Source: Thermoplasmata archaeon (GTDB taxonomy: Archaea > Thermoplasmatota > Thermoplasmata > Lutacidiplasmatales > UBA184). From it: 64,000 nucleotides of DNA. Below are positions 79 through 35,876 of this stretch, piece by piece. Position numbers and translations under genes: made by a program. The notes beneath the pieces are model-generated. The model saw only the letters and a list, made by a program, of their open reading frames with translations, searched no databases and had not been told where the DNA came from. Numbering within the stretch: the first letter of the stretch is position 1; every line of letters starts with the position of its first letter. Where the stretch lies: contig JBAUYF010000001.1 in the NCBI GenBank assembly GCA_049584655.1, forward strand, positions 7,290 to 71,289, in the 5' to 3' direction.

Positions 79-3000
79 CTACCGCATCTCCTCGAGTTGG
101 AGCCGCATGATCACGCCGAGACTGACCAGTTCTTCGAGGAGCAGCTTGAAGGAGTAGCTCATTTCGACCGGATAGATCGACGAGGTGTTCCCACAACTCG
201 GACAGCGGAGCGAGCCCGCCCGCGTATCCGGGATCGCAATGTGGCCGCACTCAGAGTTCCCGCAGACATACTGGATCGTACCGTCGGACTCGTCCAGGAG
301 GCGGTCCTTGATGACCATCGCGACGCCGTGTCCGATGAGACAGTCGCGCTCCATTTCTCCGAAACGGAGTCCGCCTTGCCGCGACCGACCTTCGGTCGGC
401 TGGCGGGTGAGGATCTGAACCGGGCCACGGGAACGCATGTGCATCTTCCCGGCGACCATGTGGTGCAGTTTCTGATAGTAGATCACGCCGATGAAAACCT
501 CCGCCTCGAGTCGGCGGCCCGTCCGGCCATCGTAGAGGGTTTCGCGTCCCGAGGGATGGAATCCGAGCGCCTTCAAACCCTCCCGGATAGCTTCCTCTCG
601 TTCGCCGGAAAATGCGGTCCCATCGATCGTCCGACCCTCCAGGGCTCCGACCTTGCCGCCCAACATCTCGAGCACGTGAGCAACGGTCATGCGCGACGGA
701 ATCGCGTGGGGATTGATCAGCAGGTCCGGGGAGATCCCCTGGCGCGTGAACGGCATATCCTCCTGCGGCACGATCAGACCGATGACGCCTTTCTGACCGT
801 GGCGGGAAGCGAACTTGTCTCCCAATTCGGGAACGCGCTGGTTGCGGACTTTGACTTTGACGAGTTTGGAGATGTTCTCTCCTTCCGTAAGGATCACGTT
901 GTCGACCCATCCGGATTCGCCGAAACGAACGGTCACCGAAGTTTCGCGACGTTTCTGCGGGGTCAAGAGGTCGGTCTTCTCTTCGAGGAACCGCGGCGGA
1001 CTGGTCTTGCCGATCAGCACATCGCCTTCCGTCACCTCGAGTTCGGGGAAGATCAGACCGTCTTCGCCCAAGTTTCGATAGGCGGTGTCGACGCGTGCCC
1101 CAGCGACATCGGGTCGCGGGATCTCAAAGCGGTCCTCTTGACCGCCGGGATACTTCCGCTCCTCCCCCCGGTATGTCCGGAAGAAGGACGAGCGACCGAG
1201 CCCCCGGTCGATCGCGGCCTTCGAGAAGACCAACGCATCTTGCATGTTGTATCCCTCGTAGGAGAGAACGGCGACGACGAAGTTCTGTCCGGCCGGACGC
1301 TCGGTGAAGTGGACGTAGCGCATCGTCTGCGTGCGGAGCAGTGGCGCCTGCGGGTAGTGGAGTAAGTGGCCGCGCGTGTCCGGCCGCCGGCGGTAGTTGA
1401 CCGACTCGACACCCAGCGCTTGCTTGGCCATTCCCGAACCCATCGTGTTACGCGGCGTCGAATTGTGTTCCGGATATGGGATGAGCCCGGTACAGACCCC
1501 GAGCATCAAGTTCGGGTCGATCTCGAGATGCGTGTGGCGCTCGTTGAGTAGATTCTCCGAAGTGAACTCGGCGTGGCAGTGACCGCATTGAACGGTAGCA
1601 TGATCGCCTCGCTCACCCACCGAGACCCAGCGAACATCGCCGCGCGAGAGAGCGCGTTCACACTTCGGACACCGCTCGGGAGAATGATATCCGTCGACGG
1701 CGATGAGGGAATCCTCCTCCTCTTCCGCGTCAATCCATTCGACCTTGCCCTGACGAATCAGATCAGTGAAGGCAAGCGTCCCTCGGCCCAACTCATCGAG
1801 GTCGGAGCGCGTTACCTTCGGCACTCCACCTTTCACGACGATCAGGGGACGTCGGAGGCGACCGGGGTCGCAGTGAACGATGACTTCGTTCATTTCCTCG
1901 TCGTAGCGCACGTTGATTTCGTAGGTCTTGTCCTGCAAAGTCGGAGAAAGAGTACCCGCGCGCCGGCGATCGCGGATCTCCCGCACGAGGTCGAGCGGAT
2001 TGGAGTGCAGACCGATCAGGTTCCCGTTGACGTAGACGCGGGCGGCTCGCTTCCCTTTCGTCGCAGAAGAGTCCTGGAGTATCTCGGGTCCGATCTCGCG
2101 CGTGTTCAAGTCCCGTAGGATGAGTGTGACTTCCTCTTCATCCGCGCCTTCCGATACATCGACGCAGAGCGCGTAGTTCTTGACGAGGCCGCAGTTCTGC
2201 CCTTCGGGCGTTTCATTGGGACAGAGACGTCCCCATTGCGTAGGGTGTAGATCGCGTGCCTCGAAATGGGGCTGACTGCGGGTGAGTGGGCTCGTAACTC
2301 GGCGGAGGTGAGAGATCGCGGACATGTGGCTCGTTCGGTCGAGCACTTGGCTGACCCCGGCGCGGCCCCCCACCCAGTTGCCTGTTGCGAGGGCGTGCAC
2401 CAATCGCTGGGTGAGCAAGTCCGGTCGGATCGCGCTGGCGATCCGCAGATCCTTTTTCCGGGCGAACGAGCGCTCGAGTTGGTACTTGAGGTCCTTGAGG
2501 AGCAGGGAGAACGCGACGCGGAAGAGATCCTCCATCAAGTCGCCGGCGAGCTTGAGTCGCTTGTTCGCGTAGTGATCCTTGTCGTCCTCCCCCCGGACTT
2601 TAAGGTGAAGTTCGAGGACGGTACGGGCCATGCGGGCGAGATACAGGGCCTTCTTCAGCCGGTCCGTCTTGATGTCGCCGAGGTGCGGGAGGAGCGACCG
2701 ATCGAGAATCCCATCGACCTTGCGTTGCCGGTACTCCTTGGCCTGCCCCGTCGCGAACTTCTTCTCGAGATAAAGAAGCGCGTCTTCGGTGGTGAGGATC
2801 CCCTCGGGCGGGTACAGCTTCTTGGAAATGCACTCCTCCAGATTCACGTTGAGGAGGTGCTTCATCGTTTGGACGAACGGTTCGTCCAACGGAAGTAGCT
2901 CGCCGAGCACCGCCTGGAAGATCTCCTCGTCGTTCTTCATCCCGAGGGCCTTCATGAGAATGGCCAACGGGATCTGGCCGGACGCGGTCGGAACTGAGAC

Positions 3001-3753
3001 CTGCAGAATTCCGTCCTTCTTTTTCTCGACGACGGTCAAGGAGCGGTAGCCGCCGCGCTGGCTGAACACCTTCGCGCTCTCGATCGGAGTCCCGTACCGC
3101 TCGTTGTACTCCGCGAAGATCCGGTTCGGAGCCAAGTCCTCGAGACTGATGATCACGCGCTCGGTTCCGCCAATGATGCAGTACCCTCCGGGGTCGAGCG
3201 GGTCCTCGCCGTACTCCACCAGCTTGGCGCGATACTCCTCGGCCGAGAGCCCATAGTCCGAGTACTTCTCGATCGTACCCTTCTGCAAGTTGCAAGGGCG
3301 GCTCTTGACCATGATCGGTAGGTCGCCTATGTGGACGGTTTCGGGCGCGCGTTCGACTCCGTTTTCGACTACGGTGACGTTGAGGTAGATCGGCGCTTGG
3401 TACGTGAGGTTCCGCAGGCGAGCCTCCATCGGCGTCAAGGTCGGCTTGGATCCCACCGGTTCCTTGACGAAGGGTTGCCCGACGAGGATCGTCGGTTCGG
3501 CCGAGGGGCTCACAAGTCCGGTCCGTGGGTCGCGCCGTCGTCCGACACGCACGTAGATCGAGCTCTTGGTCTTCTGAACGTCCAGCCGGATGATGCCGCG
3601 CTCGCTGGAGTCCTCACTGACCCGAGCTTCGTCGACGATCCGCTGCATCCGAGAGTTCGGATTGTCGGAGGTCGGCAGAAAGTCGTTGAAGCTGGCCAGG
3701 TGATGGTTGACGATCGATCGCTCTCGGAAGAAGGCGTCTACGATTTCGCGCAT
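79..3753 (-). CDS. rpoB: DNA-directed RNA polymerase subunit B (unsplit B''+B', 1224 aa)
   Basis: 1224-aa ORF with Rpb2/RpoB signatures ([77 protein letters not shown]) and the C-terminal Cys4 clamp zinc motif (CGNSECGH...CPSCG). Confidence 0.97.
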
Positions 3754-3762
3754 GGAATGGAA

Positions 3763-4104
3763 TTACTCTCCTACGGAAGGTATGACGACGCGATAGGCGA
3801 TCGCTTCGCCGGCCGTCTGGGACGGTCGTCGTATGCGGACCAGTCGACCGACCAAGAGCTCATGGGCTTCCTTCGCGGCGACGAACTTGGGATCGGTCTT
3901 GAGTCCGGGGTCCGAAAGGAGAATCTTGGGGAGGCGCTCGAGGGATGTCCCTAGGGTTTGGACCATTTCCGCGGTCTCGCTTTCCGAAAGGAGCTCGTGC
4001 GGCGGCACCAGATGATGCGCCACGAAGGGCCGTGGGGGTGCCGCATTCGCGGCGGCGGCGCCCTTCCCGGTGCGTTTCTTGGGCTTCGCTCGCGTGGGAC
4101 TCAT
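3763..4104 (-). CDS. rpoH: DNA-directed RNA polymerase subunit H (Rpb5 homolog) with a Lys/Ala/Pro-rich N-terminal tail
   Basis: The C-terminal part (HHLVPPHELLSESETAEMVQTLGTSLERLPKILLSDP...LVRIRRPS) matches RpoH, and it lies directly upstream of rpoB. I placed the start at the ATG at 4104 because the longer 143-aa frame reads through a tRNA gene. Confidence 0.85.
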   Translation of the reverse strand: MSPTRAKPKKRTGKGAAAANAAPPRPFVAHHLVPPHELLSESETAEMVQTLGTSLERLPKILLSDPGLKTDPKFVAAKEAHELLVGRLVRIRRPSQTAGEAIAYRVVIPSVGE

Positions 4105-4125: not shown

Positions 4126-4268
4126 CGGGCCCGGGGGGATGTCCGGAGAGGCTCCGACGCGTGCACGGAGCCTCCCGATCGAACCCCCGACCACCTGGTT
4201 AAAAGCCAGATGCTCTTTCTAGGGTCAACGGCAGAACCGTCCGACCAACCTAGCTGAGCTACGGGCCC
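4126..4268 (-). tRNA. tRNA-Lys(UUU) interrupted by two non-canonical introns (D-loop and T-loop)
   Basis: Hand-folded on the minus strand. Acceptor GGGCCCG/CGGGCCC plus discriminator G. D-stem GCTC...GAGC encloses 40 nt, where about 10 are expected. Anticodon stem TCTGG/CCAGG with loop CTTTTAA. T-stem GGGGG/CCCCC with loop TTCGA-[38 nt]-AT. Both inserts form strong hairpins (GGCTCCG...CGGAGCC in the T-loop insert). Confidence 0.8.
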
Positions 4269-4327
4269 GTAGCCGTTCCGGTTCGTCCGGACCCGAGCGC
4301 CGTATTTCAGGTTTCGCCTCGGCGGGC

Positions 4328-35773: not shown

Positions 35774-35876
35774 TGCAGGTGCCGGGAGTTCCGCCCGGGC
35801 GACGTCCGTCGCCCGGAGTTTCGAACCCGGGTGGTCAGCTTGGAGGGCTGACATCCTACCACTAGATTACACCTGC
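35774..35876 (-). tRNA. tRNA-Gly(UCC) with a 32-nt T-loop intron and C at position 33
   Basis: Minus strand: GCAGGTG-TA-ATCT-AGTGGTA-GGAT-G-TCAGC-CCTCCAA-GCTGA-CCAC-CCGGG-TTCGA(A)-[about 32 nt forming hairpin CCGGGCG...CGCCCGG]-(C)T-CCCGG-CACCTGC-A. Confidence 0.75.

Follow-up and report, generated by a model that had tools for sequence, protein, structure and literature searches.

A tRNA-Lys(UUU) gene with two predicted bulge-helix-bulge introns, in its D-loop and T-loop, in a clade of Thermoplasmatota

We analyzed a 64-kb stretch of DNA from a Thermoplasmata archaeon (assembly GCA_049584655.1), hereafter the window, and within it a tRNA-Lys(UUU) gene that lies on the minus strand upstream of the RNA polymerase genes rpoH and rpoB. 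Read from 4268 to 4126, the gene has the order GGGCCCG-UA-GCUC-(40 nt)-GAGC-A-UCUGG-CUUUUAA-CCAGG-UGGUC-GGGGG-(45 nt)-CCCCC-CGGGCCC-G. All stems of a tRNA-Lys(UUU) can be read directly as perfect, among them the acceptor stem, anticodon arm and T-stem that a first-pass annotation of the window had called so, and the D-loop and T-loop are each oversized by about 30–40 nucleotides. The same annotation had the D-stem enclosing 40 nucleotides, which the sequence bears out, and put the insert at about 30; intron 1 measures 31 nucleotides (gene positions 22–52). As an unspliced RNA of 143 nucleotides the gene folds at -79.1 kcal/mol, with z = -4.85 relative to 200 dinucleotide shuffles. The parts of the gene, with their predicted bulge-helix-bulge (BHB) motifs, are the following.

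4126..4268, minus strand: tRNA-Lys(UUU) gene, 143 nucleotides including the discriminator G at 4126; the CCA end is not encoded.
4248..4268, minus strand: exon 1, tRNA positions 1-20, with the acceptor 5′ strand, U8 A9, the D-stem 5′ strand and D-loop AGCUAGGU.
4250..4253, minus strand: exon strand CUAG of the D-loop BHB central helix (tRNA positions 16, 17, 17a and 18); its partner is the intronic CUAG at 4219-4222.
4217..4247, minus strand: intron 1, 31 nucleotides, D-loop 20/21, UGGUCGGACGGUUCUGCCGUUGACCCUAGAA; supported by BHB geometry and covariation in alignment A4.
4219..4222, minus strand: intron strand CUAG of the D-loop BHB central helix.
4178..4216, minus strand: exon 2, tRNA positions 21-59, with A21, the D-stem 3′ strand, anticodon arm, variable loop and T-stem 5′ strand; anticodon loop CUUUUAA, variable loop UGGUC, T-loop part UUCGAU.
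4180..4183, minus strand: exon strand UUCG of the T-loop BHB central helix (tRNA positions 54-57); its partner is the intronic CGGA at 4142-4145.
4140..4177, minus strand: intron 2, 38 nucleotides, T-loop 59/60, CGGGAGGCUCCGUGCACGCGUCGGAGCCUCUCCGGACA; supported by a strict hBHBh′ motif and covariation in alignment A5.
4142..4145, minus strand: intron strand CGGA of the T-loop BHB central helix.
4126..4139, minus strand: exon 3, tRNA positions 60-73, with U60, the T-stem 3′ strand, the acceptor 3′ strand and the discriminator G.

The unspliced gene is called by neither ARAGORN nor Rfam, and Rfam reports no tRNA there even at E≤10. With its intron option ARAGORN returned only a tRNA-Arg on the opposite strand with a 140-nucleotide 'intron', which we rejected as spurious. 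After splicing in silico, ARAGORN calls tRNA-Lys(ttt), which agrees with the earlier claim that the cloverleaf is complete only once two inserts are removed. The spliced product has 74 nucleotides (exons of 21, 39 and 14 nucleotides), a 9-nucleotide D-loop, AGCUAGGUA, and a 7-nucleotide T-loop, UUCGAUU. It is identical at 72 of 74 positions to the uninterrupted tRNA-Lys(UUU) of two Thermoplasmata metagenome-assembled genomes (MAGs), L045 and L095, and at 69-71 positions to four other intronless tRNA-Lys(UUU) genes. The predicted exon junctions (↓) are AGCUAGGU↓AGAGC (GGU↓AGAGC) and GGGGGUUCGAU↓UCCCCC (UUCGAU↓UCCCCC). The gene was also found in an independent Logan assembly (L121), identical to that of the window, and in a JGI assembly (L122) with a single difference, one base of the apical loop of intron 2. 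Environmental samples that contain this organism are SRR28012030 and JGI 3300075518.

Splice sites were assigned by the rule that EndA, the splicing endonuclease, cleaves each bulge behind its second nucleotide. The rule was tested on the canonical 37/38 intron of a relative (L008), where the exon ends are fixed by the conserved anticodon loop CUUUUAA; the bulges there are U36-A37↓G and A-G↓A38, flanking the helix CUUU/GAAG. Both introns of the window gene show a central helix of 4 bp with 3-nucleotide bulges on opposite strands. In the T-loop motif UUCG (U54-G57) pairs with CGGA, the bulges are A58-U59↓C and C-A↓U60, the outer helix is the T-stem GGGGG/CCCCC and the inner helix is the intron stem of 10-11 bp, which makes this a strict hBHBh′ motif. 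The length of 38 nucleotides given for the T-loop insert in the first-pass annotation is correct, but its boundary at 58/59 is not, as the BHB geometry gives 59/60 (UUCGAU↓C...A↓U). In the D-loop motif C16-U17-A17a-G18 (CUAG) pairs with the intronic CUAG, the bulges are G19-U20↓U on the 5′ side and A-A↓A21 on the 3′ side, the inner helix is GGUC.../...GACC, and the D-stem follows directly after the 3′ bulge. A BHB motif, which the annotation had proposed to look for, is therefore present at both insert boundaries, strict at the T-loop and relaxed at the D-loop. The geometry is conserved in 37 genes at the D-loop and in 35 at the T-loop; a central helix of 4 bp is present in 34 of the 37 and in all of the 35. 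The cloverleaf with both BHB motifs contains standard pairs only and lies 3-6 kcal/mol above the minimum free energy.

To place the gene among its relatives, one genome per species was scanned for its first 20 nucleotides, which yielded 120 loci. An insert at the same D-loop site occurs in 36 orthologous tRNA-Lys(UUU) genes of other MAGs; 34 of these 36 also have the T-loop insert, and 14 carry a third, canonical 37/38 intron. Intron lengths among the relatives range from 27 to 41 nucleotides in the D-loop and from 28 to 83 nucleotides in the T-loop. The 36 intron-bearing MAGs are labelled Thermoplasmata, Thermoplasmatota, Methanomassiliicoccales, Methanomassiliicoccus or 'Methanobacteriota'. 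Six more distant MAGs, titled Thermoplasmata, Thermoplasmatota or Thermoplasmataceae, have neither intron in the orthologous gene. The closed genome CP070732.1 carries the two-intron gene at about 152-160 kb. The neighboring genes in the window are these.

3763..4104, minus strand: rpoH (RNA polymerase subunit H/Rpb5), identified by its translation and Pfam PF01191; it gives the context for orthology.
3753..79, minus strand: rpoB, unsplit, next after rpoH.

The order tRNA-Lys, rpoH, rpoB is kept in all Thermoplasmatota loci long enough to show it, including five of the six intronless ones. Because tRNA-Lys lies upstream of rpoH-rpoB in both, the intron-bearing and the intronless genes are orthologues. 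Over the N-terminal 400 residues of RpoB, the three closest lineages (L070, L038 and L115), all of which have both introns, are 89-92% identical to the window, the other intron-bearing lineages about 59-64% and the intronless lineages 49-52%. The introns are old, and common to a large clade that includes Methanomassiliicoccales. The first-pass annotation had noted that multiple introns of this kind are best documented outside organisms with such euryarchaeal-looking gene content. The introns are not peculiar to this organism and are the rule in a large part of Thermoplasmatota, MAGs labelled Methanomassiliicoccales and Methanomassiliicoccus included.

The exons are far more constant than the introns. 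Exon 1 is identical to that of every relative compared (21/21), exon 2 matches at 35-37 of 39 positions and exon 3 at 13-14 of 14. In the closest relatives the exons are identical at 70-71 of 74 positions, and the introns at 19-22 of 31 (intron 1) and 27-28 of 38 (intron 2), that is, 61-74%. Compensatory changes among relatives are found in the anticodon stem as well. Covariation was assessed on fixed-length cassettes around each motif, aligned without gaps as A4 for the D-loop and A5 for the T-loop. The D cassette (29 distinct sequences) has standard pairs in 92.2% of cells and 45 double-change cells; its covariation score of 0.285, as compared to 0.108 in shuffled alignments, was reached in none of 500 shuffles. 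The T cassette (27 distinct sequences) has standard pairs in 89.6% of cells, 53 double-change cells and a score of 0.350 versus 0.154, again reached in 0 of 500 shuffles. All inner-helix pairs, seven of seven in each cassette, show changes on both sides. When the 3′ partner is slid by at least one column, the paired cells fall to 29-48% (D) and 29-69% (T). The central helices are paired in 98.3% (A4 helix 2, D-loop) and 100% (A5 helix 2, T-loop) of cells. They are nearly invariant because one strand is a conserved tRNA loop, and the intronic strand is still held complementary to it.

Near-invariant exons, compensating introns and independent assemblies together rule out chance, an assembly error and a decaying pseudogene as explanations of the locus. 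The last of these would be a gene disrupted by insertions, with a working tRNA-Lys(UUU) elsewhere in the genome; it would suit a gene that standard tRNA finders do not call, and the stretch of genome examined is 64 kb. We nevertheless regard it as very improbable. The locus is the orthologous position of the normal tRNA-Lys(UUU) across the phylum, all stems are kept, and the changes by which the introns diverge are compensatory and leave the BHB motifs intact. In addition, where another tRNA-Lys with the same 5′ end was found, in MAG SMAG_U14898 (L013, L023), it is the CUU isoacceptor and not a second UUU. We are therefore highly confident that 4268..4126 is a functional tRNA-Lys(UUU) encoded at a single locus, with BHB-spliced introns at 20/21 and 59/60. 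In-silico splicing, BHB geometry, covariation and orthology with intronless genes all point this way, and the first-pass identification of a tRNA-Lys(UUU) with two non-canonical introns stands.

In the precursor, as sequence and comparison show, D-loop nucleotides C16-G18 pair with the intronic CUAG into the 4-bp helix with bulges G19-U20-U and AAA, and T-loop nucleotides U54-G57 pair with the intronic CGGA, leaving A58-U59-C and C-A-U60 as bulges. By analogy with characterized archaeal systems, EndA would then cut each bulge after its second nucleotide, the ligase RtcB would join the three exons into the 74-nucleotide tRNA, and trimming of the ends would be followed by CCA addition. That the inserts are instead retained as expanded D and T arms, or are removed without EndA, for example by self-splicing, is to our judgment the least probable of the alternatives. 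Every elongator tRNA needs the interaction between D-loop and T-loop, and retained inserts would break it by parting G18-G19 from A21 and splitting the T-loop. For self-splicing, the inserts of 31 and 38 nucleotides contain no ribozyme core, and Rfam finds no match at them. Group I introns of tRNAs are longer than 200 nucleotides and lie in the anticodon loop, and the lengths of the inserts, their sites in the D- and T-loops and the lack of an Rfam match exclude a group I intron here. Removal by any route other than EndA is further opposed by the 4-bp helix and 3-nucleotide bulges, which define the EndA substrate and are visibly under selection. A split or permuted tRNA gene is ruled out by the three exons, which are collinear and all lie within 143 nucleotides.

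The points that weigh against BHB splicing of this gene come from the D-loop motif and from the enzyme. Splicing, expression and the exact cleavage sites of tRNA-Lys(UUU) are what we infer from the gene and its relatives. Opposite the 3′ bulge of the D-loop motif A14 and G15 are unpaired, which produces a 2x3 internal loop, and on its 3′ side the motif is of the relaxed HBh′ kind and not a strict hBHBh′. There is also a second way to pair it. In L038, L070 and L115 the intronic strand reads CCCUAC, so that the pairing described above (register 1) contains a C-C mismatch, and a slipped pairing, UAGG/CCUA, is intact. Cutting in the slipped register would use the helix U17-G19/C-C-U-A with bulges UUG and GAA, remove gene positions 23-51 and leave an 11-nucleotide D-loop, AGCUAGGUUAA, with the junction GGUU↓AAGAGC; the minimum-free-energy fold of the window gene likewise pairs G20 with C46 into a 5-bp CUAGG/CCUAG. 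We nevertheless prefer register 1, because it gives exactly the 9-nucleotide D-loop of all six intronless orthologues, because G23:C46 is replaced by A:U in L051, L085 and L097 (A4 pair 14-31), as expected only if position 23 is paired, and because the centroid fold of the 143-nucleotide RNA is register 1. In this register the 3′ bulge AAA also directly adjoins the D-stem, and cleavage in the slipped register seems unlikely to us.

On the side of the enzyme, the α4 and α′2 forms of EndA are described as strict (PMC4090602, PMC4033280, PMC5829648), and the 'Cluster II' euryarchaea, among which this lineage falls, are said to encode only α′2 EndA (PMC5829648). The wild-type α′2 EndA of A. fulgidus 'hardly cleaved' a D-loop BHB intron and cut it only when the Crenarchaea-specific loop (CSL) replaced EKGDL (PMC3241643). 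Searches with phmmer using EndA of M. jannaschii, A. fulgidus, Thermoplasma and Methanomassiliicoccales detected no EndA among all open reading frames (ORFs) of the 64-kb window, and in the 120 tRNA-Lys loci and 80 metagenome loci they gave matches only on non-Thermoplasmata contigs. RtcB was not found in the window either, where no search aimed at it was made. A protein search with the C-terminal unit of A. fulgidus EndA found only Archaeoglobus-like and DPANN proteins, a genome scan with a Halorubrum-led EndA alignment only haloarchaea, and a protein search with a 59-residue fragment of the T. acidophilum EndA structure 2OHC no candidates. The same fragment used in a genome scan led to a Thermoplasma sp. 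contig with endA, and an alignment led by that EndA was used for a second genome scan. In this way 24 EndA genes were found, on contigs titled Thermoplasmata, Thermoplasmatales, Thermoplasmataceae, Thermoplasmatota, Methanomassiliicoccales or Sysuiplasma. All except one are single proteins of 289-361 residues; the ORF of L207 has 243 residues from its first start codon. Pfam detects both EndA domain families in each of five recovered proteins that were searched, with two copies of each in the four of Methanomassiliicoccales type, and two copies of each indicate an α′2 architecture. A profile search with the Thermoplasmatota EndA alignment returned 2,876 relatives, and the best 120 of these 2,876 are all 342-398 residues long. 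The recovered Thermoplasmatota proteins contain no insertion at the EKGDL (CSL) site, nor is there one in the stretch from the FRxY motif to the catalytic His. EndA of the window genome and of the three closest MAGs (L038, L070 and L115; the closest MAGs are filed in GenBank as JAKIWQ01, JAKIVX01 and DATJRX01) was not among the genes recovered, and none of the matches P0103, P0129, P0112, P0156 and P0111 comes from the window lineage or from these three MAGs. Judged at the level of the lineage, the EndA of Thermoplasmatota thus looks like a two-unit α′2 type without CSL or ASL.

The first-pass annotation had concluded that the genome should encode a broad-specificity endonuclease of α2β2 or ε2 type. 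The genes recovered do not support this: the EndA from the phylum is α′2, the T-loop motif is strict and the genome's own EndA was not among them. The strict hBHBh′ motif of the T-loop intron should be acceptable to any archaeal EndA, and no special enzyme is needed for it. The D-loop intron does raise a question of specificity. Here the α′2 EndA of the lineage may accept a wider range of motifs than that of A. fulgidus, the form of the motif itself may be good enough for an α′2 EndA, or there may be a second enzyme that a motif-based scan missed. Separately, a comparison of the EndA loci L204-L216 with L217, L219, L220 and L243-L260 revealed two forms, a short Thermoplasmatales type (mostly 289-319 residues) and a full-length Methanomassiliicoccales type (346-361 residues). 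In the catalytic unit the full-length type has, from the LSLxE helix to the VYxDL motif, a segment of some 30 residues that is absent from the short type.

The canonical archaeal tRNA intron lies at 37/38, as in haloarchaeal tRNA-Trp and tRNA-Met. The introns described here share its motif and presumably its enzymes, and 14 relatives carry a 37/38 intron in addition; the window gene, in contrast, has none at 37/38, and its two introns lie in the loops of the elbow. Like the known multi-intron tRNAs of archaea, the gene has more than one intron of tens of nucleotides outside 37/38, its BHB motifs are partly built from exon loop nucleotides, and removal of the introns restores the cloverleaf. 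Some tRNA genes of Asgard archaea and Bathyarchaeia (L022, L049, L062, L037 and L084) have T-loop introns of the 59/60 kind as well. Non-canonical or multiple introns are best documented in Thermoproteales, other Crenarchaeota, Nanoarchaeum, Korarchaeum and ARMAN-1/2, and within Euryarchaeota in Methanopyrus kandleri and Methanothermobacter thermautotrophicus; a review table of multi-intron taxa names Crenarchaeota, Nanoarchaeum, Korarchaeum, ARMAN, M. kandleri and M. thermautotrophicus and no Thermoplasmata (PMC4033280). The lineage described here, Thermoplasmata and Methanomassiliicoccales, differs from these published taxa. It also differs from Thermoproteales, where introns are scattered and recently transposed, in that two introns of one gene are kept across a clade. 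A BHB intron within the D-loop of an elongator tRNA is known from A. pernix, whose α2β2 EndA carries the CSL, shown to be necessary for efficient D-loop cleavage (PMC3241643); the recovered Thermoplasmatota EndA is α′2 with no insertion there. Among euryarchaea of the α′2 EndA group, 'Ca. Methanohalarchaeum thermophilum' HMET1 has pylT genes in which one or two BHB introns occur (PMC9071458); that case concerns tRNA-Pyl in another lineage and a single organism, with no analysis of conservation or covariation. In the literature searched, no account of non-canonical or multiple tRNA introns was found for Thermoplasmata or Methanomassiliicoccales, and tRNA introns go unmentioned in a comparative genomics paper on Methanomassiliicoccales (PMC4153887). 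Introns of this kind and their mechanism are known, and it is the lineage that is new for them. Since tRNAscan-SE in its present archaeal modes is able to detect introns of this sort, these genes may already be present, unremarked, in databases.

According to reviews, Euryarchaeota with α4 or α′2 EndA have one intron per tRNA gene and only at the canonical position, and the diversity of introns co-evolved with the architecture of the endonuclease (PMC4090602, PMC4033280, PMC5829648). Two or three introns in the tRNA-Lys(UUU) of a Thermoplasmatota branch that includes the methanogenic Methanomassiliicoccales of animal guts go against this picture. What lifts the observation above routine is that the arrangement is clade-wide in a group thought to be without it, and that the D-loop intron is awkward for an α′2 endonuclease. 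We tentatively propose, at somewhat less than even odds, that a large clade of Thermoplasmatota has long kept a D-loop intron, and T-loop introns at least in tRNA-Lys and in the tRNA-Gly described below, with only an α′2 EndA that lacks the known specificity loops. If so, the α′2 enzymes of the clade would process a relaxed D-loop BHB that the model enzyme of A. fulgidus hardly cuts, and the limits on where an intron can sit would not come from EndA architecture and the known loops. The lineage would then have an unrecognized determinant or helper, or the precise shape of the D-loop motif would be sufficient. A more practical consequence is that tRNAs are under-counted in MAG annotations of the phylum, since standard finders miss such genes; tRNA-Lys(UUU) or tRNA-Gly(UCC) may wrongly be listed as missing.

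Upstream of the tRNA-Lys gene lies one further feature.

4303..4309, minus strand: candidate archaeal TATA box UGAAAUA, 35-41 nucleotides upstream of the tRNA 5′ end.

UGAAAUA and the element UCGGGUCC (4296-4289, minus strand) are unchanged across the window, L070 and L038, and their flanks diverge; the sequence at 4309-4303 is likely a TATA box. UCGGGUCC includes GGGUCCG; this is similar to GGGCCCG, the 5′ end of the tRNA, and might base-pair with the 3′ strand of the acceptor stem. Downstream, 21 nucleotides separate the discriminator from the rpoH start codon, and this spacer contains a Shine-Dalgarno-like GAGG that is retained in L070 and L038. The tRNA and the RNA polymerase operon may share a transcript, from whose leader the tRNA would then be excised.

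Among the relatives, the longest T-loop intron is that of the Thermoplasmata MAG CWP4-2.bin.83 (L085), whose tRNA-Lys(UUU) gene spans 233 nucleotides with three introns, the T-loop one having 83 nucleotides compared to 28-38 elsewhere. The tRNA-Lys(CUU) genes of three Methanomassiliicoccales and Methanomassiliicoccaceae MAGs (L060, L098 and L105) have a 59/60 T-loop intron of about 22 nucleotides, with a UUCG/CGAA helix and a CAU 3′ bulge; the same isoacceptor is intronless in MAGs L013, L054, L077 and L114. Two contigs carry archaeal intron-containing tRNA genes under bacterial names, L106 (JALGZR010000247.1), filed as 'bacterium' and with a three-intron tRNA-Lys(UUU), and L101 (DATGZD010000158.1), filed as 'Candidatus Sulfotelmatobacter sp.'; both are probably binning contamination.

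The whole window was scanned for hidden tRNAs by the combination of T-loop, T-stem and a 7-bp acceptor stem, which gave 66 loose matches. Apart from tRNA-Lys, tRNA-Ser and tRNA-Gly, nearly all of them are chance matches in GC-rich coding sequence and were rejected. Two of the three tRNA genes of the window, Lys and Gly but not Ser, have non-canonical introns. The tRNA-Gly gene is laid out as follows.

35876..35774, minus strand: tRNA-Gly(UCC) gene, 75 nucleotides upstream of tRNA-Ser(UGA).
35788-35819, minus strand: T-loop intron of tRNA-Gly(UCC) at 59/60, 32 nucleotides, with outer helix CCGGG/CCCGG and central helix UUCG/CGGA.

Unspliced, this gene too is missed by ARAGORN and Rfam, and once spliced it is called tRNA-Gly(tcc) by ARAGORN. 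All of its 60 distinct variants from soil and peat metagenomes have an intron of about 30 nucleotides at this site, with a compensating inner helix. The anticodon loop of the window's tRNA-Gly(UCC) is CCUCCAA, with C at tRNA position 33 (window position 35844). C33 is present in about 46 of the 60 variants and the usual CUUCCAA in about 13. U33 is almost universal in tRNAs, and it is unusual for an elongator tRNA to have a conserved C33.

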